Positions 2,937 through 19,040 of a stretch of DNA of 64,000 nt are shown one piece after another (the first letter of the stretch is position 1; each line of letters opens with the position of its first letter). Source of the stretch: Gammaproteobacteria bacterium (lineage in GTDB: Bacteria; Pseudomonadota; Gammaproteobacteria; Eutrophobiales; Eutrophobiaceae); the NCBI GenBank assembly GCA_965208655.1, contig CBDBPJ010000007.1, forward strand, positions 20,820 to 84,819, given 5' to 3'. Made by a program: the position numbers and the translations under genes. The notes beneath the pieces are model-generated. The model made no database searches and was not told the origin of the DNA. It saw only the letters and a program-made list of their open reading frames with translations.

Positions 2937-3829
2937 CAGCGGCGGGCCTGCTCCTCACCGAGCACAAAGCGGGCCATACCTATCCGTGACATGTAAGGGG
3001 TTGTGTCAATGGGCATGGCATTGAATTCTACGGCCGCCGCTTCCGCATTACCCAGCAGCACGGAAAACGGGGCGCTGCCGTTCAGCACCAGTATTTGATC
3101 GCGTCTGGACAGGTCATAAAACACTTTATCGTTGTTGGCATCGAATATTTCGATCCAGCAATCTTCCGTGAGGACTATCCTGATTGAGTCAGGCCCTATG
3201 CCGGTGGTAATCGTATTCCCGTCGTAGGGGTCTGCCGGACTGTCAAATTCCCTGTCAGGGTTCGTTGCCCGGAGACCCGGTTGTTGCGCCGACGCCGCCC
3301 GTTCCGTGTTTGGCGCTCGATAGAACGGCGTATCAGGATGTTCGACAATCGTGATCGGGTAGGACAGGCCACTCGTCGCAGCGTTGCCCCCGGGCTGGTT
3401 GCCGCCCGCCCCGGCAGAAATTGTCGCTTCCTGCGTATGATGACTGCGCCACCAGGTGAACGGCAGCAGTAACGCGGCAAACACCACGAGATATAAAATC
3501 GTGTAAGGCCATTTCTTCGATTGCTCGGGTTTCGGCTTGGATTGACGTTGCGGGACCTGTTCCGGTTGCTCCGTTATATCATCCTTGTACATCGCCACAA
3601 CCTGATCTGCAGGTGTGTCCAGTAATTTTGCGTAATTCTGCAGGTAACCGTAGACGTAAGTCCCGGTCGGCAGGCGCTCATGATCGTCCTGCTCCAATGC
3701 TTCTATGATGTGAGCCTGCAGGTACAGCTTGTTAGACACGTCTTCTATGGAGAGGTTTTTTTCTTCACGCAGTCGCTTCAGGAATGTGCCGGCGGAAGAC
3801 CGTATTTCATTATTCTGGTTATCGGACAT
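2936..3829 (-). CDS. rodZ: Cytoskeleton protein RodZ (HTH domain plus C-terminal domain)
   Basis: 297 aa. It has an N-terminal XRE-type HTH (LKRLREEKNLSIEDVSNKL), a transmembrane segment and a proline-rich periplasmic tail. It sits downstream of rlmN, as in Gammaproteobacteria. Confidence 0.75.
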   Translation of the reverse strand: MSDNQNNEIRSSAGTFLKRLREEKNLSIEDVSNKLYLQAHIIEALEQDDHERLPTGTYVYGYLQNYAKLLDTPADQVVAMYKDDITEQPEQVPQRQSKPKPEQSKKWPYTILYLVVFAALLLPFTWWRSHHTQEATISAGAGGNQPGGNAATSGLSYPITIVEHPDTPFYRAPNTERAASAQQPGLRATNPDREFDSPADPYDGNTITTGIGPDSIRIVLTEDCWIEIFDANNDKVFYDLSRRDQILVLNGSAPFSVLLGNAEAAAVEFNAMPIDTTPYMSRIGMARFVLGEEQARR

Positions 3830-3853
3830 GTCAACCTTGAAAAGCAGTCCGGG

Positions 3854-4936
3854 TCAGGCGCACCCGTTTGCCGTGCGCCGGGTCTGGCTGCGCGCGGCGC
3901 GCGCGTTCACGCGCCCGACCAGTTGCCCGCAGGCTGCATCAATATCATCGCCCCGGGTCTTCCGGGTAATGGTAATGATGCCGGATTGGACCAGTATATC
4001 CCGGAACAGGTCAGTGGTTTCCATGGATGACCGGCTGTACTCCGTACCGGGAAACGGGTTGAAAATTATCAGGTTTACCTTGGCCGGGAAGCCTTTCAGC
4101 AGCTGCGCCAGTTCCCGAGCGTCAGCCAGGGAATCATTTACCCCTTTCAGCAGGACATATTCAAAGGTGATGGGTTCTCCGCCGGTGGCTTCACTGTAGC
4201 GGCGGCAGGCGGATAACAGCTTACGTATCGGGTATGTCCTGTTAATCGGCACCAGTTCGTCCCTGAGCGCGTCATTGCCGGCGTGCAAGGAAACGGCCAG
4301 GCTGATCCTGCTGCATTCAGACAGCTTGATGATGCCGGGAACAATGCCCGCGGTACTCAGGGTCACGCGCTTGTTCGCCAGTCCGAATCCGAGGTCATCC
4401 GTAATCAATTCGACGGCTTTTACTACATTGTCGAAATTGAGCAGCGGTTCGCCCATACCCATGAGGACGATGTTGCTGATGATGCGCTTGCGGCTGGCGA
4501 AATAACCCAGTTGTTTGTTGGCCAACCAGAGCTGGCCGATGATCTCCGCCACTGACAGGTTGCGGCTGTAGCCTTGTTTGCCGGTCGAGCAGAAGGTGCA
4601 GTTCAAAGCGCAACCGGCCTGCGAGGAAATACACAACGTGCCCCTGCTGGTCTCCGGAATGAAGACGGTTTCAATCGCGTTGTCGGCATCGACCTGCAAC
4701 AGCCATTTACGGGTGCCGTCCGTTGAAATCTTTTCAGAGATAATCGACGGCAGCGGTGAATCCGTATTGCCGGCCAGGTGATCGCGCAGGCTTTTACTCA
4801 AATCGGTCATGGCGTCGAAGTCGGTTACACCCTGGTGGTAAACCCACTTCATCACTTGCGTCGCGCGAAAAGGTTTTTCCTCCATGCCGGTGAAATAGTC
4901 CCGCATGGCGGCCTGGTCAAGATCGAACAGATTCAC
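3854..4936 (-). CDS. rlmN: 23S rRNA/tRNA m2A methyltransferase RlmN (radical SAM)
   Basis: 360 aa with the CxxxCxxC radical-SAM motif (CALNCTFCSTG) and an RlmN-like N-terminus. Confidence 0.9.
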   Translation of the reverse strand: MNLFDLDQAAMRDYFTGMEEKPFRATQVMKWVYHQGVTDFDAMTDLSKSLRDHLAGNTDSPLPSIISEKISTDGTRKWLLQVDADNAIETVFIPETSRGTLCISSQAGCALNCTFCSTGKQGYSRNLSVAEIIGQLWLANKQLGYFASRKRIISNIVLMGMGEPLLNFDNVVKAVELITDDLGFGLANKRVTLSTAGIVPGIIKLSECSRISLAVSLHAGNDALRDELVPINRTYPIRKLLSACRRYSEATGGEPITFEYVLLKGVNDSLADARELAQLLKGFPAKVNLIIFNPFPGTEYSRSSMETTDLFRDILVQSGIITITRKTRGDDIDAACGQLVGRVNARAARSQTRRTANGCA

Positions 4937-4942
4937 GCCGGA

Positions 4943-5383
4943 TTACCTGCTGCGCGGACAAATTTCGTCTGCGTCGAAAAAAAAGCGGATCTCGTCCAGG
5001 GCAGTTTCCGGGGCGTCAGAACCGTGTACCGCATTTTCTCCCTGGTCGCCGTCGCGTTCGCAATAGTCTGCACGGATAGTGCCCGGCTCGGCATCCCTGG
5101 GAAACGTGGCGCCCATCAGTTCCCGGTTTTTCGCAACGGCGCCTTCGCCTTCCAGAACCTGCACCATAATGGGCCCGGATACCATAAAATCCACCAGTTC
5201 CCGGAAAAAAGGTTTTTCCCTGTGGACCGCGTAGAATTCGGCGGCCCGTTGTTCGTCGAGGCGCAGCATCTTTGCCGCAACGATTTTAAGCCCGGCGTTT
5301 TCAAAGCGCTGGTATATCGCACCTACCAGGTTCCCGGCTACCGCATCGGGCTTGATTATTGACAGGGTTTGTTCAACAGACAT
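4943..5383 (-). CDS. ndk: Nucleoside diphosphate kinase
   Basis: 146 aa. It carries canonical NDK motifs ([16 protein letters not shown], and the NxxHGSD active-site region is present as AVHGSDA). Confidence 0.92.
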
Positions 5384-6428: not shown

Positions 6429-7691
6429 TTATTTGAATATGTTTTTCGCTTTGTCGATCCCCGCAACCAGCTTGTCCACTTCTTCAGTCGTGTTGTAAAA
6501 GGCAAGGGAAGCCCTGGCCGTGGCAGGGATGCCGAACCGTTCCATTACCGGCATGGCGCAATGGTGTCCGGTCCTGATGGCTATGCCGTCGTGGTCCAGT
6601 ATGGTGCCCAGGTCGTGTGGGTGAATCCCGTCTATAACAAAGGACAAGATACTTGCCTTGTCGGCGGCCGTGCCGATCAGCCGCAATCCCGGCACGCCGG
6701 CGGCAGCCTCGGTGGCATACTGCAACAACCCGTGTTCGTAGTCATGAATCCTGTCCAAATCGACGTCGCTGACGTAGTCAACCGCCGCGCCCAGGCCGAT
6801 TACCCCGGCGATGTAAGGCGTGCCTGCTTCAAACTTGTAGGGCAGGTCGTTGTACATGGTTTTTTCAAAGGTGACCATCTTGATCATGTCGCCCCCGCCG
6901 TGGTACGGCGGCATGTCTTCCAGCAAGGCCTGTTTTCCGTATAACACGCCAATCCCGGTGGGGCCGAACAATTTATGGCCGGAGAAGGTATAGAAGTCGC
7001 AATCCAGCGCGGCCATATCAAGCTTCGTATGGGGCGCCGCCTGGGCGCCGTCGATAACTACCACGGCGCCGGCAGCATGGGCTTGCGCGGTAATCTCTGC
7101 AATCGGGTTGATCGTGCCCAGGGCATTGGAGATATGGACGATCGCAACAATCCGGGTCCTCTCGTTCAGCAGGTTTTTATACTCGTCCATATCCAGTTCG
7201 CCGGCGTCGTTGATCGGAATGACTTTCAGGGTGGCGCCGGTTTGTTCGCACAACAACTGCCAGGGGACGATGTTGGAATGGTGTTCCATCGTCGAGACGA
7301 TGATTTCATCCCCGGCGCCCAGCCTGCTCCTGCCGTAGCTTTGCGCAACCAGGTTTATCCCCTCCGTCGTGCCGCGTACGAATATAACCTCCTGCAGCGA
7401 TTCGGCGTTGATGAAGCGCTGAATTTTTTTACGCGCGGTCTCGTAGGCATCCGTTGCCAATTCACTCAGGGTATGCACGCCGCGATGGATATTGGAATTG
7501 TAGGAACGATAATAGTCATCCAGAACTTCGATAACCTGGCGCGGCTTTTGCGCGGTTGCCGCGTTGTCCAGGTAGACCAGGGGCATGTCGCGCACGGTCT
7601 GCTCCAGGATCGGAAAATCCTGCCGGTACGTCTCCACCGGGAAACCTGTTGCCGGCCCCGTATCTGCCTGCACGGCCTGCGGGTAGTTCAT
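6429..7691 (-). CDS. sufS: Cysteine desulfurase SufS
   Basis: 420 aa class-II aminotransferase-fold enzyme with an SGHK PLP-lysine region. It sits inside the suf operon. Confidence 0.9.
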   Translation of the reverse strand: MNYPQAVQADTGPATGFPVETYRQDFPILEQTVRDMPLVYLDNAATAQKPRQVIEVLDDYYRSYNSNIHRGVHTLSELATDAYETARKKIQRFINAESLQEVIFVRGTTEGINLVAQSYGRSRLGAGDEIIVSTMEHHSNIVPWQLLCEQTGATLKVIPINDAGELDMDEYKNLLNERTRIVAIVHISNALGTINPIAEITAQAHAAGAVVVIDGAQAAPHTKLDMAALDCDFYTFSGHKLFGPTGIGVLYGKQALLEDMPPYHGGGDMIKMVTFEKTMYNDLPYKFEAGTPYIAGVIGLGAAVDYVSDVDLDRIHDYEHGLLQYATEAAAGVPGLRLIGTAADKASILSFVIDGIHPHDLGTILDHDGIAIRTGHHCAMPVMERFGIPATARASLAFYNTTEEVDKLVAGIDKAKNIFK

Positions 7692-9013
7692 TTTACGAAC
7701 TCCTCTATCAGGTCGGTGTCGGGCAACTCGCCGGCAATGCTGTGTTCCAGCCGTTCGCGGATTTCGGGGAACCTGATATCGCGGATTATCTCGTCGGCAA
7801 AGGCATAGGTCAGCAGGCTCCGGGCCGTATGTTCATCGACCCCCCTGGAACGCAGGTAGAACAACATGTTTTCATCAAGTTGTCCGACCGTTGCGCCATG
7901 GCTGCACTTGACGTCGTCCGCGTAGATTTCCAGTTCCGGTTTGGTATCGACCTCGGCGTTGCCGGAGAGCAGCAGATTCGCATTGGACTGGTGAGCCTCC
8001 GTCTTCTGGGCCTGTTCGTGCACGATCACCTTGCCGTTGAAAACGGCGCGGGAATGCCCGTTCATGACGCCCCGGAAATGTTCATGGCTGGTGGTATGGG
8101 GCTGTTTGTGCTCAACCAGGGTATGGTTGTCGACATGCTGGCGGTTATTGGTCAGATACAGACCGTTGAGCTTCACCTCGGCGCCCGGTTCGTCCAGTTC
8201 GACGTCGATGTCGTTGCGCGCCAGTTTCCCACCCAGGGACAGGGCGTGACAGTCAACCCTGCTGTCGGCCTGCTGCCGGATGCGGGTATTGCCGATATGG
8301 TATGCGCGCTGGCTTTCCTGCTGGATACTGTAATAGTCCAGGCGGGAACCGGCCCGGCCCAGGATACCGGTCTGGTTGTTGGTTAAATACTCGGTATCGG
8401 GGATGCCGGCAAAGGACTCGATCACGCTTGCCCCGGCATTCCGGCCGAGCGCAACCAGGTTGCGCGGGTTCGACATCAACGTTGCATCAGCTTGACCGCT
8501 AATGTAAATGATGTGTATGGGTATGGCGACTTCCGTGTTGTCCGGCACATGGATAAGAACACCGTCGTTGACAAATGCCGTGTTCAGCGCGGAAAAGGCG
8601 TTTTTGATCTCCCCGTCTACGAAACAGGATTCGAGCAGGAGGGCATCATCCGGTTGCACCGACTGTAACGGCTGTACGGTCACGCCGTCGGGCAGCGGTT
8701 CGTTACGCGACAGCGCCGCGGAAAAACTGCCGTTGATAAACACCAGTTCGTGGCAGTCCAGCCGGGAAAATCGCAGGCTGTCCACGAACGCATCGTCAAC
8801 AGCCGCCGGTGCGGACCTCCCGACCGTGAATTTCTTCCTGGTGATGGGGGTGACATCGGTGTATTTCCACTGTTCCGTCCTGCGCGAGGGGAAACCGTTG
8901 GTCCTGAGGAAATCCAGGGCCGCAGCGCGGGGTTGTGCGAACCACGGGGCCGTCAAGGTATCCCTGAACTGTTCGTATTCCGCGAGATAATGGCTGACGG
9001 CTGCCTCACTCAT
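7688..9013 (-). CDS. sufD: Fe-S cluster assembly protein SufD
   Basis: 441 aa. It lies between sufC and sufS, with SufB/SufD beta-helix family character. Confidence 0.85.
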   Translation of the reverse strand: MSEAAVSHYLAEYEQFRDTLTAPWFAQPRAAALDFLRTNGFPSRRTEQWKYTDVTPITRKKFTVGRSAPAAVDDAFVDSLRFSRLDCHELVFINGSFSAALSRNEPLPDGVTVQPLQSVQPDDALLLESCFVDGEIKNAFSALNTAFVNDGVLIHVPDNTEVAIPIHIIYISGQADATLMSNPRNLVALGRNAGASVIESFAGIPDTEYLTNNQTGILGRAGSRLDYYSIQQESQRAYHIGNTRIRQQADSRVDCHALSLGGKLARNDIDVELDEPGAEVKLNGLYLTNNRQHVDNHTLVEHKQPHTTSHEHFRGVMNGHSRAVFNGKVIVHEQAQKTEAHQSNANLLLSGNAEVDTKPELEIYADDVKCSHGATVGQLDENMLFYLRSRGVDEHTARSLLTYAFADEIIRDIRFPEIRERLEHSIAGELPDTDLIEEFVK

Positions 9014-9771
9014 GCTGCCCTGGCCTCCTGCCTGACCCAGTCGTACCCTTTTTCCTCAAGTTCGACAGCCAGTTCGCGGTTGCCGGAGCGGATGATCTTT
9101 CCATCCGACAGCACATGCACGTAATCAGGGACAATGTAGTTCAGCAACCTCTGGTAGTGGGTTACGAGAACGATGGCGCGGGATTCGTTGCGTAATGAAT
9201 TGACGCCTTCCGCAACAGTTTTCAGCGCGTCGATGTCCAGGCCGGAATCCGTTTCATCCAGGATGGCCAGGCGCGGGTCCAGGACCGCCATCTGGAAGAT
9301 CTCGTTGCGTTTTTTCTCGCCGCCGGAGAAGCCTTCGTTCACGGACCGGTTGAGCAGGCTCTCATCCATTTTCACCAGCTTCATTTTTTCCCGCACCACC
9401 TGCAGGAATTCGACCGCGTCCAGCGCACCTTTGCCCTGGTGCTTGCGGATGCCGTTCAGCGCCGCCTTGAGCAGGTAGATGTTGTTCACCCCGGGAATTT
9501 CCACCGGGTACTGGAATGCCAGGAAAATACCCTCCCGAGCCCGTTCTTCCGGGGCAAGCTCAAACAGGTCGCGGCCCTCGTATTCGACCGTACCGGACAT
9601 GACCTCGTAGTTGTCCCGCCCTGCCAGCACGTTCGCCAGGGTGCTCTTGCCCGAACCGTTGGGCCCCATGATGGCGTGTACCTCGCCGGTATTAACCGTC
9701 AGGTCCAGGCCTTTCAGGATCTGCTTGTTGCCGATCCCGACTTTTAAATTGTTAATTGTTAACATTGTCAT
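9010..9771 (-). CDS. sufC: Fe-S cluster assembly ATPase SufC
   Basis: 253 aa with a Walker A (GPNGSGKST), an ABC signature and a Walker B. The N-terminus LTINNLKVGIGNKQILKGLDL is typical of SufC. Confidence 0.92.
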   Translation of the reverse strand: MTMLTINNLKVGIGNKQILKGLDLTVNTGEVHAIMGPNGSGKSTLANVLAGRDNYEVMSGTVEYEGRDLFELAPEERAREGIFLAFQYPVEIPGVNNIYLLKAALNGIRKHQGKGALDAVEFLQVVREKMKLVKMDESLLNRSVNEGFSGGEKKRNEIFQMAVLDPRLAILDETDSGLDIDALKTVAEGVNSLRNESRAIVLVTHYQRLLNYIVPDYVHVLSDGKIIRSGNRELAVELEEKGYDWVRQEARAA

Positions 9772-14294: not shown

Positions 14295-14318
14295 AGAAAA
14301 ATTCAAGCCATTCCGGGC

Positions 14319-14546
14319 TCAAATATCATAATGGGAAATGGTGCCCGAGCGGTTAATCCCGGCTATAAATGGCGCTTTCTCCCGTACAACAAACTTTTGA
14401 ATTCGACTGTGGTATTTCACTAGAATTTCAGCAAGTTCCGGTCCTGTTTGATGTTTTGCGCGGATAACGATCACGCGTGCTCCATACTCTTTAATGGTAC
14501 GTATCTCAGCAGTGCGATATCGGATTTGTTTATCGATAATTTGATG
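14319..14546 (-). pseudogene. Start-less 75-codon ORF remnant of unknown function at the left edge of the AT-rich islet
   Basis: Manual translation gives HQIIDKQIRYRTAEIRTIKEYGARVIVIRAKHQTGPELAEILVKYHSRIQKFVVREKAPFIAGINRSGTISHYDI with no ATG and a stop directly upstream. It reads as coding-like but is unassignable. Confidence 0.25.
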
Positions 14547-14577
14547 TCAAATTACATACCTCAGCCAAGCCTAACAT

Positions 14578-15537
14578 CTAGGAGTCAATATATGGAATAT
14601 TGGAACGGCGAACATTTATTTCTAGCCCCTTTGACATTCGTAAACGATTAACGCTGTGAAAGCGGACATCCTGATAAGCCCCAGGCCCAATAATAATACC
14701 CTCAATGCAATCTAATAAGGCTTCAGATGGAGGGGGCGTCTTGATATATGGCACGAGCATGCCGTTCTTATTATAAAATTGAATATCATCAAAGGGTTCA
14801 GCAATAAGAGAACTCATTCGACATTCGCGCTCTTCGGAAAAATGGTTGTTTTTTGTTAGCAACCGATACATTAAATACCTTTGTATTGCTTCCCCAGCCA
14901 AAGGAGGTGAAAAAATTATTGAAGCCAAGTCAATCTGTTCGTTAGCTTGTATTTGCTCCTCTTCTTGATAGGCCTTATATTTTAGATAATTCATATAAAT
15001 CTCTAGGTATACATCTTTATACTCTAGTACTTGCTCCTTCAGTGAATTGTCTAGGACATAATGAACATCGTTTAATAAGTAACTATATCTTTTCGTTTTG
15101 TTATTAGTATTTTCTATCCATTTCATCAACTTGGACCGGGAAAACTGCAACGCATAGCCGCCTTTTCTGCCGTAACCCCGCCATTGGCTAAGCAAACCAT
15201 CTTGGAAGTCTTTTTCCGTAGTTTTACAGAAGCAGGTTATGTAAATTTGCAGAATGTTCATAGTAGCTTTGAAAAATAGACTTTCGAATTTGTTTGCATG
15301 GTGAGTGATATTATTTCCACGCTTCTGGAATATATTTACAAACTCGTGCTCTGCAAGTACCAAGACTAATGTTTGCTCATTGAAAATCTTGGTCAAAATT
15401 CCTTCTCCAGTATTCAATTCAGATACATCACTGGTAGTAAAGTATGCAGTGCTCCATATTTCACCCTGTGACAATATTCCCAGTAAGCCTGCCGTATCCG
15501 TATAGTGGAATATGGCATCATTAGTATAAGTGGCCAT
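14578..15537 (-). CDS. DUF2971-family protein
   Basis: 319 aa and AT-rich. The N-terminus IFHYTDTAGLLGILSQGEIWSTAYFTTSDVSELNTGEGIL matches the characteristic DUF2971 opening (hYTs...LlgIL..g.lW.s......ND..E). It is recalled from memory, not searched. Confidence 0.45.
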   Translation of the reverse strand: MATYTNDAIFHYTDTAGLLGILSQGEIWSTAYFTTSDVSELNTGEGILTKIFNEQTLVLVLAEHEFVNIFQKRGNNITHHANKFESLFFKATMNILQIYITCFCKTTEKDFQDGLLSQWRGYGRKGGYALQFSRSKLMKWIENTNNKTKRYSYLLNDVHYVLDNSLKEQVLEYKDVYLEIYMNYLKYKAYQEEEQIQANEQIDLASIIFSPPLAGEAIQRYLMYRLLTKNNHFSEERECRMSSLIAEPFDDIQFYNKNGMLVPYIKTPPPSEALLDCIEGIIIGPGAYQDVRFHSVNRLRMSKGLEINVRRSNIPYIDS

Positions 15538-15650
15538 AAGTTTTCTTATCTGTTCCGTTCCTCAACCAAAAAAACAGTAGTCGCCCCCACAGTTGGGTCA
15601 GGCAAAATATTGAACTTAAAGATCAGAGAATTTGCCTAGATAATTCTCAC

Positions 15651-15941
15651 TTACCCATGCAACGCCCGAACAGCATGTTCCGGGTCTACATCCAGGATTC
15701 TCAGCAGAGCCTTAGCCGGTCCAGTCGGATGCCGGCGCCCTTGTTCCCAGTTTTCCAGCGTCCGCTTGCTGACGCCGATTAACATAGCAAATTGATTCTG
15801 GCTCAGTCCGATTTTTTTCCGGATCATCTTGGCCTCTGGTTCCGGAAATTTTGTGACCCTGGCAGCCGCTTTTTTTCCTTGGACAATTTCGTCCATTTCC
15901 TGAACGCTGGCCAACAATTCATTAAACAGTTCATTTTTCAT
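15651..15941 (-). CDS. higA: XRE/COG2944-type HTH antitoxin (HigA-like)
   Basis: The motif IGLSQNQFAMLIGVSKRTLENWEQGRRHPTGPAKALLRIL is the COG2944 antitoxin signature. It overlaps the upstream toxin gene. The start is taken at the internal MKNELF. Confidence 0.7.
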   Translation of the reverse strand: MKNELFNELLASVQEMDEIVQGKKAAARVTKFPEPEAKMIRKKIGLSQNQFAMLIGVSKRTLENWEQGRRHPTGPAKALLRILDVDPEHAVRALHG

Positions 15942-16254
15942 CTGTCCACCTCTCAACTATCGATTTCAGTTCTTTCACTTGTTCAGACGTTAGATCTTCC
16001 TGTTTAGTCTTTTGGTAAATGTACAGCATGTATATCTGCTCATTTTTCGTCATCCAGTAGTAAATCACCCTGACGCCACCGCTCTTCCCCCGTCCTTCAT
16101 GCTTCCAGCGGACTTTTCTCAGTCCTCCAGTGCCTTGAATAATGTCGCCCATGCCTGGGCGATTTACCAAGGCTTCCTGAAGCTCCCTATACTCCTCATC
16201 GCTCATCAATTCTTTGATACGCCGTGTAAAGATACGGGTTTCTATGATTACCAT
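15931..16254 (-). CDS. higB: Gp49/HigB-like RelE-superfamily toxin
   Basis: 107 aa. KSGGVRVIYYW...IYMLYIYQKTKQEDLT is the PF05973-type toxin signature. The gene is in toxin-then-antitoxin order with 15651-15941. Confidence 0.7.
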   Translation of the reverse strand: MVIIETRIFTRRIKELMSDEEYRELQEALVNRPGMGDIIQGTGGLRKVRWKHEGRGKSGGVRVIYYWMTKNEQIYMLYIYQKTKQEDLTSEQVKELKSIVERWTDEK

Positions 16255-16544
16255 GATTGCTAATTGTACGTCAAAGGCGTATATTGTCCAAGTTGATTCC
16301 TGATGGTCAAGACATAATTGTTATAATTTTGTTCAATCAATATTAACTGCAGGTAGATATCCGCTAGACTAGCTGGCAAGGCGGTAGTCGCCAGGTGACT
16401 GACAGATCGGAATTTCTTGATTGCTTCGGTGATAAATTTTATCTGTTCGTGGTACTGAACTCCATCGAACCGGTTCAGTTCCAGGAGGTTTGAAACAGGG
16501 AGACTAATAATATTTCCCGGATAAGGTCAGATTAGTATTCAATT

Positions 16545-16832
16545 ATGAAAAATATCACGACAGATAACATCTTTGAGGATATCGGTTTCGACAAACAGGA
16601 GGCCGCCAACATGAAAGTTCGTGCGGAATTACTGCTGGAAGTCCGAGAGCATATTCGTAAGATAGGCTTCAAGCAGAAAGAAGCCGATGCCTTGCTAGGG
16701 ATCAACCAATTTGAAGTCAGCGCACTGATGAATGGTCATATCTTCAATTTCAGTATTGATGCGCTGGTGAATATGCTTGCCAGGGTAGTGCGGGAACTGA
16801 AAATTACAACACAGCCAAAAAAGGCGATTTGA
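16545..16832 (+). CDS. XRE-family HTH antitoxin-like protein (NIFEDIGF motif class). No intact partner toxin lies upstream.
   Basis: 95 aa. MKNITTDNIFEDIGFDKQEAANMKVRAELL...LGINQFEVSALMNGHI matches HigA-type antitoxins that normally follow a ~90 aa RelE/HigB toxin. The 290 bp upstream has no ORF in any frame. Confidence 0.6.
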   Translation: MKNITTDNIFEDIGFDKQEAANMKVRAELLLEVREHIRKIGFKQKEADALLGINQFEVSALMNGHIFNFSIDALVNMLARVVRELKITTQPKKAI

Positions 16833-16911
16833 GTTGTGTACTTCATCTATACAGACCAACTAGGTTTTAAATAAGCTTCTATGAATCAAGAAATAATGAG
16901 TAGAGAGATGA

Positions 16912-17580
16912 TTGAGAATGGATAGTTGGTGGCAATTAGGAGAGGGTTATGGGGCTCATGGCAGAAAACTCGCGGTATACCAAATTACATGTGCATTCTG
17001 TATGGAAGAGGGAAATTTCGAGACTGTGTTTCATGCCGAAAAGAAAAAACCAAATTCCGACAAGAAATTGAACTTCGATACCCTTGAGTGTGGAAACTGT
17101 AAAGGGTACGTAATGGTAATTTGGTCTGCTGGTGACTATCACGGAGACCTTCATAACTACAGAGTTCTGCCATACCCTTTGAAATTAGAAAAGTTTCCTG
17201 AGCATTGGCCAGAAGCTGTCGGTCGATACTGGCTCCAAGCAAAACGTAATATACGAGATGAAAATTGGGATGCTGCCGCTGTAATGGCGCGAAGTGCTTT
17301 GCAAATCGCACTTAGAGACAACAAAGCTGAAGGGAAAAACCTAAAGCAAGAAATTGATGATCTAGCCGAGAAGGGTACCTTGCCGCCGATTATGAAAGAT
17401 TGGTCCAATCATGTTCGCGATTTAGGTAATGATTCGGCGCATCCACAACCAGAGCAAGATCCAACGAATCCACAAGATGCACGGGACATGGTTGGCTTTC
17501 TAGATTTCTTACTGGAGTATCTATATACACTTCCTCATCGTATCAGTCAGTATCGGGGCCGTGGAAATGAAGAAGAATGA
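16912..17580 (+). CDS. Zn-ribbon plus DUF4145 domain protein
   Basis: 222 aa. The N-terminal CxxC...CxxC pairs are CAFC (27-30) and CGNC (60-63). The C-terminal region (ARSALQIALRD...NHVRDLGNDSAHP) resembles DUF4145, the domain also found at the HsdR C-terminus and in Abi-like proteins. Confidence 0.5.
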   Translation: MRMDSWWQLGEGYGAHGRKLAVYQITCAFCMEEGNFETVFHAEKKKPNSDKKLNFDTLECGNCKGYVMVIWSAGDYHGDLHNYRVLPYPLKLEKFPEHWPEAVGRYWLQAKRNIRDENWDAAAVMARSALQIALRDNKAEGKNLKQEIDDLAEKGTLPPIMKDWSNHVRDLGNDSAHPQPEQDPTNPQDARDMVGFLDFLLEYLYTLPHRISQYRGRGNEEE

Positions 17581-17916
17581 ACTGTAGAGTTTGGCTCTGC
17601 CGTAATATAAATATTTGTTAGGTGTGTGATTCATAGACATCCTTTCAACTAACTGATGACCTCTCCCCACAGCACTGTTCGTAATATTGAAGAGATCAGG
17701 CCACTTCTCGACAGGCAGTATATTTTTGACATTTTTGATTTTTATATAACCTAAATTTTGTTGGGATAATCGTTGGGCAAAGATCAGAAAGTAATATAAA
17801 TTACATTAAAAACAACAGGTTATTCGCCCAGTCATATTCCCCCTTCCAGCACCAATTTCCTGAATAAAATCAGGAATTCTTGTAGTGCACCTTGGTTATT
17901 CCATTCCGCCCTTGTC

Positions 17917-18222
17917 GCTCAAATTAGCGGGTCCACTATTTCGACCCCGGTATTCTCGAAATCCCGCCGGTTACGGGTTGCGAACTGCAGTCCATGGGTA
18001 AGTGCAGTTGCAGCAATCAGACTGTCCTTGACTGTCATCGGTTTTCCGATGGAGCGCAGATACGCGAGGAGTTCTGCCCAAGGTAACCCCGTCTCAACAT
18101 CCCATGATATACAAATACTACGCCTTGTTATTTCATCAAACCAGTGTTCGGGTTCCCGACGTCGCCGGCCGTGTAGCCTTACACAACACGTTGGTAGCGA
18201 TAAGACTCGTCACGATGGTCAT
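17917..18222 (-). pseudogene. vapC: Degraded vapC (PIN-domain toxin): frameshifted, internally deleted, first catalytic Asp replaced
   Basis: Manual translation: the ATG overlaps the vapB stop (ATGA). The N-terminus reads MTIVTSLIATNVL (LDTNV becomes IATNV) and ends after 28 codons. The conserved C-terminus ...DSLIAATALTHGLQFATRNRRDFENTGVEIVDP continues in another frame. The total is ~95 rather than ~130 codons. Confidence 0.5.
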
Positions 18223-18455
18223 CCAACCGTGTCGGTAGACTCCGATTCTATAGGCACAAACCAGGCCTTAACCGGACACGCAAGGAGTGTATCAATCAAC
18301 CTCAGGTTCTTCGGGGACTCGGCAACTACCAGGTGGTATTCGCCTCTGTCCACGCGCTCAATATCATATGCTTGATCGGCCTCGTTCTTGTCCTGATTGC
18401 TAAAATCGGCTGGTATGACGATCTGGCCTTTCGATGAAATGATAGTCTTCTTCAT
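18219..18455 (-). CDS. vapB: AbrB/SpoVT-family antitoxin VapB
   Basis: 78 aa from the internal Met: MKKTIISSKGQIVIPADF... is a swapped-hairpin antitoxin signature. It lies upstream of the vapC remnant. Confidence 0.6.
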   Translation of the reverse strand: MKKTIISSKGQIVIPADFSNQDKNEADQAYDIERVDRGEYHLVVAESPKNLRLIDTLLACPVKAWFVPIESESTDTVG

Positions 18456-18583
18456 ATCGGGTAAGTTAACGTCCCATACCGGTATTATCAAGATTCTGGT
18501 CAGGAACAAATCCCGAATATCCCGTTGACAGCTTTGAGATGGGAGGGAGATAATCGTAGTGTAATTAATTGGAAGAATGACAC

Positions 18584-18823
18584 ATGTCAACTATTACCAT
18601 CCATACGACCGACGAGGTTTCAACCAAGCTGAACCGGCTTGCAAAGGTGATGAACAAATCAAGGGATCAGGTAATTGAAGTTGCATTAAAGCAATATATT
18701 TCAGAGCAATCCGATCAAATTGCAGGTATTGAGCAGGCACAATTATCACTTGCAAAAGGCGCCGGTAAAGATTTTGACACGGTCGTCGAGGAACTACGTA
18801 ACAAAATCCGACACAAGCAATAG
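18584..18823 (+). CDS. parD: Ribbon-helix-helix (CopG/ParD-like) antitoxin
   Basis: 79 aa. MSTITIHTTDEVSTKLNRLAKVMNKSRDQVIEVAL has an RHH fold pattern. It is divergent from vapB and followed by a parE-like ORF. Confidence 0.6.
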   Translation: MSTITIHTTDEVSTKLNRLAKVMNKSRDQVIEVALKQYISEQSDQIAGIEQAQLSLAKGAGKDFDTVVEELRNKIRHKQ

Positions 18824-18833
18824 TAAGGAATAA

Positions 18834-19004
18834 ATGAAAATAAGGATTTCGCCGGAAGCAGAACAGGATTTAATCGAAATCTTTGATTACATCATCACAG
18901 ATAACCCGCTTGCTGCCAAAAAAACACTGGACGTGCTTTATAGTGAGATTCGTCACCTCAGTAATCATCCTGCGCATCTACCATTCAGCCAACAAATGGC
19001 CTGA
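18834..19004 (+). pseudogene. parE: Truncated ParE/RelE-family toxin (56 codons; the C-terminal half is missing)
   Basis: MKIRISPEAEQDLIEIFDYIITDNPLAAKKTLDVLYSEIRHLSNHP is a ParE N-terminus. The stop comes after 56 aa, and the next gene's convergent stop is only 36 bp beyond. Confidence 0.55.
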
Positions 19005-19040
19005 TGGCTTTGACTGAATAACGACATGAAATCAATCGTT

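Follow-up and report, generated by a model that had tools for sequence, protein, structure and literature searches.

Introduction

PD-T7-4, a family discovered in 2022 with a single gene sufficing (PMC9519451) and now called RAZR, is the closest described relative of the gene that we report here. In RAZR proteins a Cys4 zinc ribbon at the N-terminus is combined with a DUF4145 domain at the C-terminus, and the latter is a divergent HEPN RNase whose catalytic residues are R146 and H154 (Zhang et al., 2026, PMC13017515). The proteins act alone, as 24-mers formed round phage ring proteins (the portal or the recombinase-like Gp77), and once assembled they cleave single-stranded RNA (ssRNA) non-specifically, which leads to abortive infection (PMC13017515). 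The Escherichia coli representative, RAZR-Ec, is a single-gene system, harmless unless the phage trigger is present (PMC13017515). The DUF4145 family with its zinc-ribbon fusions had been classed as HEPN already in 2013 (PMC3710099). We have analyzed a gene of this kind in a stretch of 64,000 nucleotides (the window from here on, numbered from its first letter) of contig CBDBPJ010000007.1, assembly GCA_965208655.1, assigned to a Gammaproteobacteria bacterium. The contig is 931 kb long and belongs to the metagenome-assembled genome of an uncultured gammaproteobacterium. The gene, whose product we call the effector, follows at a short distance a gene for a small helix-turn-helix (HTH) protein of the XRE type, called XRE below.

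An earlier note on this DNA had proposed that the two genes form an undescribed module of the toxin-antitoxin (TA) or abortive infection (Abi) type. We consider it probable that the effector is instead a stand-alone protein of the RAZR family located beside an orphan antitoxin, and that the two are neighbours in a variable defence-gene slot and not a TA pair. Sequence and profile comparisons establish the domain architecture and predicted catalytic residues of the effector, its family membership by profile, the deletion of the toxin gene that once preceded the XRE gene, and a cassette-like replacement of genes between conserved flanks. A false lead is thereby removed, the pair not being a new TA/Abi system, and the gene is placed in a family for which the mechanism became known as late as 2026.

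A diverged member of the RAZR family

Gene calls were taken from a mechanical list of open reading frames (ORFs) and from Pfam, and the conserved residues of the effector are numbered from ATG 16918. The features of the locus are collected in Table 1.

Table 1. Position of the XRE and effector genes, their domains and the surrounding features in the window.
Feature	Position	Strand	Size, basis or remark
XRE ORF	16545-16832	+	95 aa; ORF list, Pfam HTH_37 E 3e-17
Effector ORF, mechanical call	16912-17580	+	222 aa, TTG start
RAZR/PD-T7-4-like defence gene	16918-17580	+	220 aa, ATG start
Cys4 zinc ribbon, N-terminal	16975-17172	+	~residues 20-85
HEPN (DUF4145) RNase domain, predicted	17203-17550	+	Pfam, RAZR alignment, Foldseek
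Relic of TA operon 5' end	16405-16544	+	alignment to intact L017/L018 operons, frame translations, tblastn
XRE/cargo junction	16833-16917	+	blastn boundaries
Right border of slot	17752-17863		TTGTTGGGATAATCGTTGGG ... ATATTCCCCCTTCCAGCACCAAT
TA/defence island, low GC	14300-19040		~4.7 kb; composition profile, ORF list, Pfam
RelE toxin	15931-16254	-	PF06296 (Pfam, NCBIfam), intact
NadS/MqsA-like antitoxin	15651-15956	-	Pfam, NCBIfam; own partner of RelE

Both ORFs listed in the earlier note are present and are real beyond chance, since many homologues of the effector exist and the ratio of nonsynonymous to synonymous substitution rates (dN/dS) of XRE against its relatives is 0.13-0.33. The start of the effector has to be moved from the TTG. 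All homologues (50 sequences) begin with MDSWW or MxSWW, and for this reason the most likely start is the ATG at 16918, which puts the gap between the XRE stop and the effector at 85 nt.

The description of the product as a zinc ribbon joined to DUF4145 was correct. The ribbon contains two CxxC knuckles, C25/C28 (16990-17001) and C58/C61 (17089-17100), and DUF4145 spans residues 114-197 (Pfam E 2e-18) with a predicted catalytic motif R167-x3-N171-x3-H175 (RDLGNDSAH, 17416-17442). C25, C28, C58, C61, R167, N171 and H175 were invariant across 50 homologues. The PD-T7-4 model of PADLOC aligned nearly end to end (residues 24-213 against profile positions 13-190 of 211, E 1.4e-12), and PHROG 1305 (phrog_1305) matched the effector over its full length (E 2.5e-36). 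The sole sequence match in the PDB was 9y9c, the RAZR structure obtained by cryo-electron microscopy, with an E of 0.005 for the single sequence and 7e-7 for a 50-sequence profile, the match covering profile positions 96-211. Here RDLGNDSAH was aligned with RIVGNQAVH of RAZR-Ec, the motif that holds the published R146 and H154. An AlphaFold2 (AF2) model with a predicted local distance difference test (pLDDT) of 82 has a beta-rich N-terminal domain, with four beta strands at 34-84 in the zinc-ribbon region (pLDDT 85-94), and a helical C-terminal domain. Its best PDB matches by Foldseek were HEPN proteins (1o3u, HepT 6m6u/5yep and 2hsb), all with weak E-values. Judged by these alignments, the effector belongs to the known RAZR/PD-T7-4 family as a new and diverged member. 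It is thus already described, contrary to what had been proposed, and the connection of DUF4145 with defence and abortive infection was rightly drawn. The family is large, with 1066 close homologues and 4899 representatives of 50% clusters at E<=1e-3.

Compared with RAZR of E. coli UMB1727 (PDB 9y9c), the protein has the same order of Cys4 zinc ribbon, linker and C-terminal DUF4145/HEPN domain in ~220 aa. Its catalytic Arg and His line up with those of RAZR at an identical spacing (x7), and in both cases a single gene is found on mobile or variable DNA. On the other hand, the identity over the HEPN domain is ~25-30%, and the subfamily of the window adds an invariant-rich N-terminal segment (MDSWWQLGEG) that precedes residue 24, where the alignment to the PD-T7-4 profile begins. 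Besides, for a defence protein the conservation within this subfamily is unusually high, with 70-95% amino acid identity over several phyla, saturated dS and dN of ~0.2 (L001-L006, L012, P0001-P0120). Its hosts belong to Deinococcota, Desulfobacterota, Nitrospirota, Poribacteria, Verrucomicrobia and Gamma/Betaproteobacteria. Being far from the E. coli prototype, conserved across phyla and integron-borne (see below), the subfamily could provide a useful second model for the phage rings sensed by RAZR-type proteins.

If the effector works as RAZR-Ec does, its zinc ribbon would bind a large phage protein of ring shape, for example a portal, the ring-bound oligomer would activate the HEPN RNase built round R167 and H175, and the activated RNase would cleave ssRNA, halt translation and abort the infection. 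Such an effector would need no antitoxin, because it would be inactive until the phage trigger appears.

More distant zinc ribbon-DUF4145 homologues (21-28% identity) were detected in Streptococcus phage PH15 (L091, 3286-3966) and in other Streptococcus prophages. Their genes, which bear the annotation 'DNA binding protein', are located in lysogeny modules with the integrase gene on one side and the repressor gene on the other, a position typical of prophage-encoded defence genes.

The XRE gene is an orphan antitoxin

XRE is a full-length HTH_37 antitoxin, and the earlier note was right in seeing a protein of the antitoxin class without its toxin. We compared it with 54 relatives, the loci obtained in a profile-based metagenome scan. 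In 44 of them the gene of a Gp49-like toxin (PF05973, a HigB-like protein of the RelE/ParE fold) precedes the HTH_37 gene at a distance of 3-50 nt, the closest toxin-bearing relatives being L017 (XRE 83% identical) and L018 (68%). Upstream of the XRE gene of the window there is no such intact gene, and no ORF of more than 39 aa was found in 16255-16544. It is true, then, that XRE has no toxin upstream on its own strand, although an intact RelE gene does lie directly upstream on the minus strand, with an antitoxin of its own (Table 1).

The upstream region, described before as devoid of ORFs, is not blank. The 140 nt that precede XRE align with the promoter, the operator and the first ~27 toxin codons of intact Gp49-type operons. 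Where L017 and L018 have TTGACG-17-TATAAT with a palindromic operator, the window retains a -35-like TTGATT (16417-16422) and a palindrome, GATAAATTTTATC (16431-16443), and opposite the TATAAT stands a degenerate TATCTG. The ATG of the toxin has been lost. What remains of the toxin gene are codons ~9-27, interrupted by stops and ending in FPDKVR (16514-16531), which are joined straight to the start region of XRE. A fuller remnant, WLGTSREDIIFFPSKLR, is kept in L014, with a tblastn E of 4e-8 to toxin residues 1-25. The same deletion junction appears in L014, L072, L071c, L075 and the clade of the window, and is bracketed by the two copies of TTAGACARAT that the intact toxin gene contains. This coincidence suggests a single ancestral deletion, or a repeat-mediated one, of toxin codons ~27-107. 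By this sequence comparison XRE is the antitoxin left over from a Gp49(HigB-like)/HTH_37 type II operon whose toxin was lost between these direct repeats.

From these alignments XRE is a true orphan, its upstream Gp49/HigB-type toxin gene having been deleted, and with that gene gone the locus is no longer a TA system. The likeness to the Gp49/HTH_37 type II systems persists in the complete antitoxin and in the upstream relics of promoter, palindrome and toxin 5' codons. The differences are the missing toxin and the fact that the orphan gene is under purifying selection in many loci. The dN/dS between orphan copies is 0.12-0.27 at dS 0.3-0.7, and from intact copies evolving at such low ratios we infer that the protein is still useful to the cell. 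The locus is in this sense a clean natural example of a TA operon decaying to an orphan antitoxin.

At L071 (1889-4118) three HTH_37 units follow one another in tandem. In two of them the Gp49 toxin is complete, with 46% and 84% identity to that of L017, whereas the third, L071c, is an orphan with the deletion and is located 19 nt before a SNF2/ResIII helicase gene.

XRE and effector do not form a conserved module

The XRE-effector pair recurs only in L007, L008, L009, L010, L011 and L013. These contigs are 92-97% identical to the window over the whole NadS-RelE-XRE-effector block (~2 kb), and with at least 90% identity over all of it the shared synteny can be put down to descent. When the effector homologues at 70-85% identity were examined, an HTH_37 neighbour appeared in none of 8 distinct contexts. 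The gene adjoins a class II aminoacyl-tRNA synthetase gene in L001, an integron integrase (TIGR02249, 408 bits) in L002, a split integron integrase in L004 and an EcoRI-like restriction-modification (R-M) system in L006. It is found together with FRG-HepT and AbiJ genes in L003 and after a sulfite/nitrite reductase gene in L077-86, while L005 has a distinct context of its own and L012 is another XRE-less locus. No neighbour gene is conserved among these 8 contexts.

A genuine TA/Abi pair, in which XRE would directly neutralise the HEPN RNase, could be argued from the adjacent and co-oriented genes, kept in six related contigs, and from the HEPN RNases that act as toxins in the HepT/MntA systems, which are among the top structural matches of the effector. 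We regard this as extremely unlikely. The contigs that carry the pair are the nearly identical ones just described, and XRE is missing in all 8 contexts at effector identities of up to 85%. In one of the six (L013) the effector is frameshifted while XRE is intact. Relatives of XRE pair with Gp49 toxins in the proportion given above, and orphan copies precede many unrelated genes or nothing at all. RAZR-Ec, in turn, is a single-gene system without toxicity in the absence of its trigger (PMC13017515). With respect to the HEPN-MNT (HepT/MntA) systems, the effector shares the HEPN RNase fold but has no MNT nucleotidyltransferase partner. Its neighbour is an HTH protein of unrelated origin, and its control would presumably depend on a phage trigger and not on AMPylation. 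On the basis of gene neighbourhoods, a conserved module or new TA/Abi pair is not supported, there being no co-occurrence across diverged homologues, which is the check that the earlier note itself had named.

A variable defence-gene slot after the orphan XRE

The adjacency of both genes would come from the position just after XRE being a variable slot. We have found orphan XRE copies 78-85% identical to that of the window followed by different genes in each case: Abi_C in L014, a Trypsin_2 protease in L015/16, a DUF8426-Mrr_cat nuclease and then DruA in L072-74, an AAA_15/21 ATPase in L075/76, a SNF2 helicase in L071c and an uncharacterised 433-aa protein in L087-89. In L090 no gene follows and the right-flank sequence starts ~75 nt past the XRE stop. 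This empty-site allele (L090:3288-3362) has as next genes GFA, a LlaJI-type restriction enzyme and an AAA_5 protein on the opposite strand.

The homology breakpoints are clustered. By blastn, homology to XRE loci with other cargos stops at 16825-16852 and returns at ~17752, and the effector cassette common to the window and the XRE-less L012 extends over 16866-17592. The right border is a non-coding element of ~110 nt found directly after different cargos in L075, L087, L089, L015 and L010. Its conservation is 76-88% in L075 (5044-5153), L087 (4155-4262), L090 (3362-3471), L015 (4447-4552) and L010 (6582-6672). Within it are TTGTTGGGATAATCGTTGGG, in which the starts of two GTTGGG boxes are separated by 11 nt, and ATATTCCCCCTTCCRGCACCAAT. 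The evidence for a conserved RNA structure in the element is weak, with a covariation term of -0.25 and compensatory changes in 2 pairs only. It could be a recombination site, a promoter or what is left of a gene. Several of the genomes that bear the slot fall with the window into common 90%-identity clusters for ValS and HisS, so that the variation is of strain or species level at a hotspot.

These comparisons indicate that in related uncultured Gammaproteobacteria XRE stands at the left end of a variable slot, where different genes of defence type have been swapped between XRE on one side and the ~110-nt element on the other. The exchange of cargo is most simply explained by recombination in the conserved flanks. 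The locus therefore also exemplifies one chromosomal slot refilled with different defence genes in close relatives, the empty-site allele included.

L010 (5698-6447) and L013 (from ~4074 onward) have an extra segment of ~750 bp directly 3' of the RAZR-like gene, at the place corresponding to 17615/17623 of the window, where it is missing. In L010 it contains an ORF of 256 aa with an EGF_MSP1_1-like Pfam match, and there is a GTTAGGT/GTTAGGC box at the junction.

We have also considered that the island could be a degenerate integron cassette array, with the XRE unit and the RAZR-like gene as separate cassettes mobilised by an integron integrase. PD-T7-4 is reported to rank with the most frequent defence cassettes of chromosomal integrons (bioRxiv 10.1101/2024.07.02.601686), and RAZR-like homologues are indeed cassettes in two of our loci. 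In L002 (3565-5738), a metagenome-assembled genome (MAG) of Desulfurivibrio, the gene is the first cassette, divergent from an intact integron integrase, with a strong hairpin immediately past the effector stop (z -3.7), so that both marks of a cassette are present. Further attC-like hairpins appear downstream (6708-6807, 8835-8902 and 9574-9665). In L004, a Nitrospira MAG (2949-5010), the integrase is split, the effector is frameshifted and an attC-like hairpin is located 30 nt upstream of the gene. In the window itself boxes resembling GTTRRRY lie at the junctions, one being GTTAGGT (17617-17623) and the other GTTGGGC (~17773). However, two scans of the island for attC patterns and hairpins were empty, there are no repeated attC-like elements in it and no integrase in the 64-kb window, and the region 3' of the cargo is less structured than its shuffles (z +1.6, both strands). 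An integron array in the window was rejected for this lack of attC hairpins, repeats and integrase, and we consider it very unlikely.

Points against the stand-alone reading and a possible role of XRE

Several observations weigh against taking the effector as a stand-alone RAZR that merely happens to lie next to XRE. The zinc-ribbon domain gave no significant HMMER alignment to RAZR-Ec (9y9c), and the conserved extra ~24 N-terminal residues of the subfamily (W4, W5, E9, G12) are apparently absent from RAZR-Ec, so that the trigger and the assembly geometry may differ. The putative RNase activity, phage trigger and defence function are drawn from a relative with the low HEPN identity mentioned above. 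The sample of effector contexts is small, with 8 distinct ones, and stays so because the scan of genome contigs gave only 6 loci; a scan of IMG/VR for further contexts yielded no confirmed relatives. Finally, all seven cargos that follow the orphan XRE are co-oriented with it and no terminator lies between, which leaves room for a regulatory link.

This last point is the basis of a different reading, in which the orphan XRE would control the slot as a portable regulator, with a low, buffered read-through from its relic, autoregulated promoter into whichever toxic defence gene is located downstream, in a manner likened to the C proteins of R-M systems or to the promoters of TA cassettes in integron arrays. 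For the latter there is a precedent in the Vibrio cholerae integron, where TA-cassette promoters are reported to activate defence cassettes downstream of them weakly (bioRxiv 10.1101/2024.07.02.601686). The arrangement found here would be suitable. The seven different cargos are 19-172 nt past XRE, no terminator-like site appeared between XRE and cargo in any locus examined (the gap of the window included), and the orphan copies are under the purifying selection already described. Furthermore, the RAZR cassette shares with the XRE-less L012 only ~50 nt of upstream sequence, and the best promoter-like match in the gap is 8/12.

We consider this reading unlikely. XRE is kept intact at the empty slot of L090, the cargos of L014, L015 and L075 bring promoter-like elements of the TATAAT type of their own, and RAZR-like homologues occur in many contexts where no such gene is present. 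As to the window, the relic -10 is degenerate, and no XRE operator was found before the effector when the L017/L018 operator consensus and the palindrome of the window were searched. The palindrome has no second copy in the island, near the RAZR-like gene or elsewhere, its only occurrence being the one upstream of XRE itself. The locus does resemble defence hotspots, integron defence cassettes and R-M systems with C proteins in having conserved flanks round interchangeable defence genes, and, as with C proteins and similar regulators, a small HTH gene is located directly upstream of the cargo in the same orientation. BrxR/CapW-type WYL regulators likewise adjoin many different defence systems. 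The differences are that the HTH protein of the window is a decayed TA antitoxin and not a member of a dedicated regulator family, that no operator precedes the cargo as would be the case with C proteins, and that the attC sites and integrase of integron cassettes are missing.

A related proposal, of which we are equally doubtful, is that the HTH_37 antitoxin, once deprived of its toxin, was domesticated and now serves the defence slot as a fixed leader, supplying an autoregulated promoter and perhaps immunity in trans to Gp49 toxins. If true, the domesticated XRE leader would be a portable control module, derived from a TA system, for interchangeable immune genes. For a stand-alone effector of the RAZR family, which we prefer, read-through from XRE would be possible, given that no terminator separates the genes, but it is not required.

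Other genes of the island

The location of the locus in a TA/defence island was correctly recognised before. The island has a GC content of 0.37-0.47 versus 0.55-0.60 in its flanks (composition profile) and is bounded by the genes of a glutathione-S-transferase (GST) and an FAD-monooxygenase. Rfam gave no known RNA in the island at E<=1, and with tblastn no remnants were found in the window of the VapC/VapB of L087 or of the extra 256-aa ORF of L010. Apart from XRE and the effector, the island encodes a DUF2971 protein, the RelE/NadS-like pair, a PIN fragment and a ribbon-helix-helix (RHH) protein followed by a truncated ParE.

The DUF2971 protein (319 aa, 14578-15537, minus strand) is at the left end of the island, a position kept in L087, and has a weak PADLOC match to the candidate system PDC-S31 (E 0.005). 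The RelE/NadS-like pair is directly upstream of the XRE unit and divergent from it, as part of a conserved left flank that recurs in L007, L010, L013, L075, L087 and L088. The NadS/MqsA-like antitoxin (101 aa) is 93% identical to the first ~97 residues of a large HTH_3-FRG-TPR protein of L007 and L008 (803 and 769 aa, L007:1613-4024 and L008:1714-4023), which overlaps the RelE gene as the antitoxin of the window does. From this match, the antitoxin domain has been either fused to the large FRG/TPR protein or truncated from it. An inverted repeat of 17 nt (88% complementary, 15926-15942 and 17569-17585) brackets the block from RelE to the RAZR-like gene and may be due to chance. One arm, ACAGTTCATTTTTCATC, is located where the 3' end of RelE overlaps the start of the NadS-like gene, and the other, GAAGAAGAATGAACTGT, at the stop codon of the RAZR-like gene.

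To the right of the effector, 17919-19004 consists of decayed TA debris. It comprises a C-terminal PIN (VapC) fragment of 39 aa (17919-18038, minus strand), a 123-aa ORF (18219-18590, minus strand, KKTIISSKGQIVIPADF) that by eye we take to be AbrB/SpoVT-like, Pfam having made no such call, and an RHH antitoxin (18584-18823, plus strand) followed by a ParE cut to 56 aa (18834-19004, plus strand).

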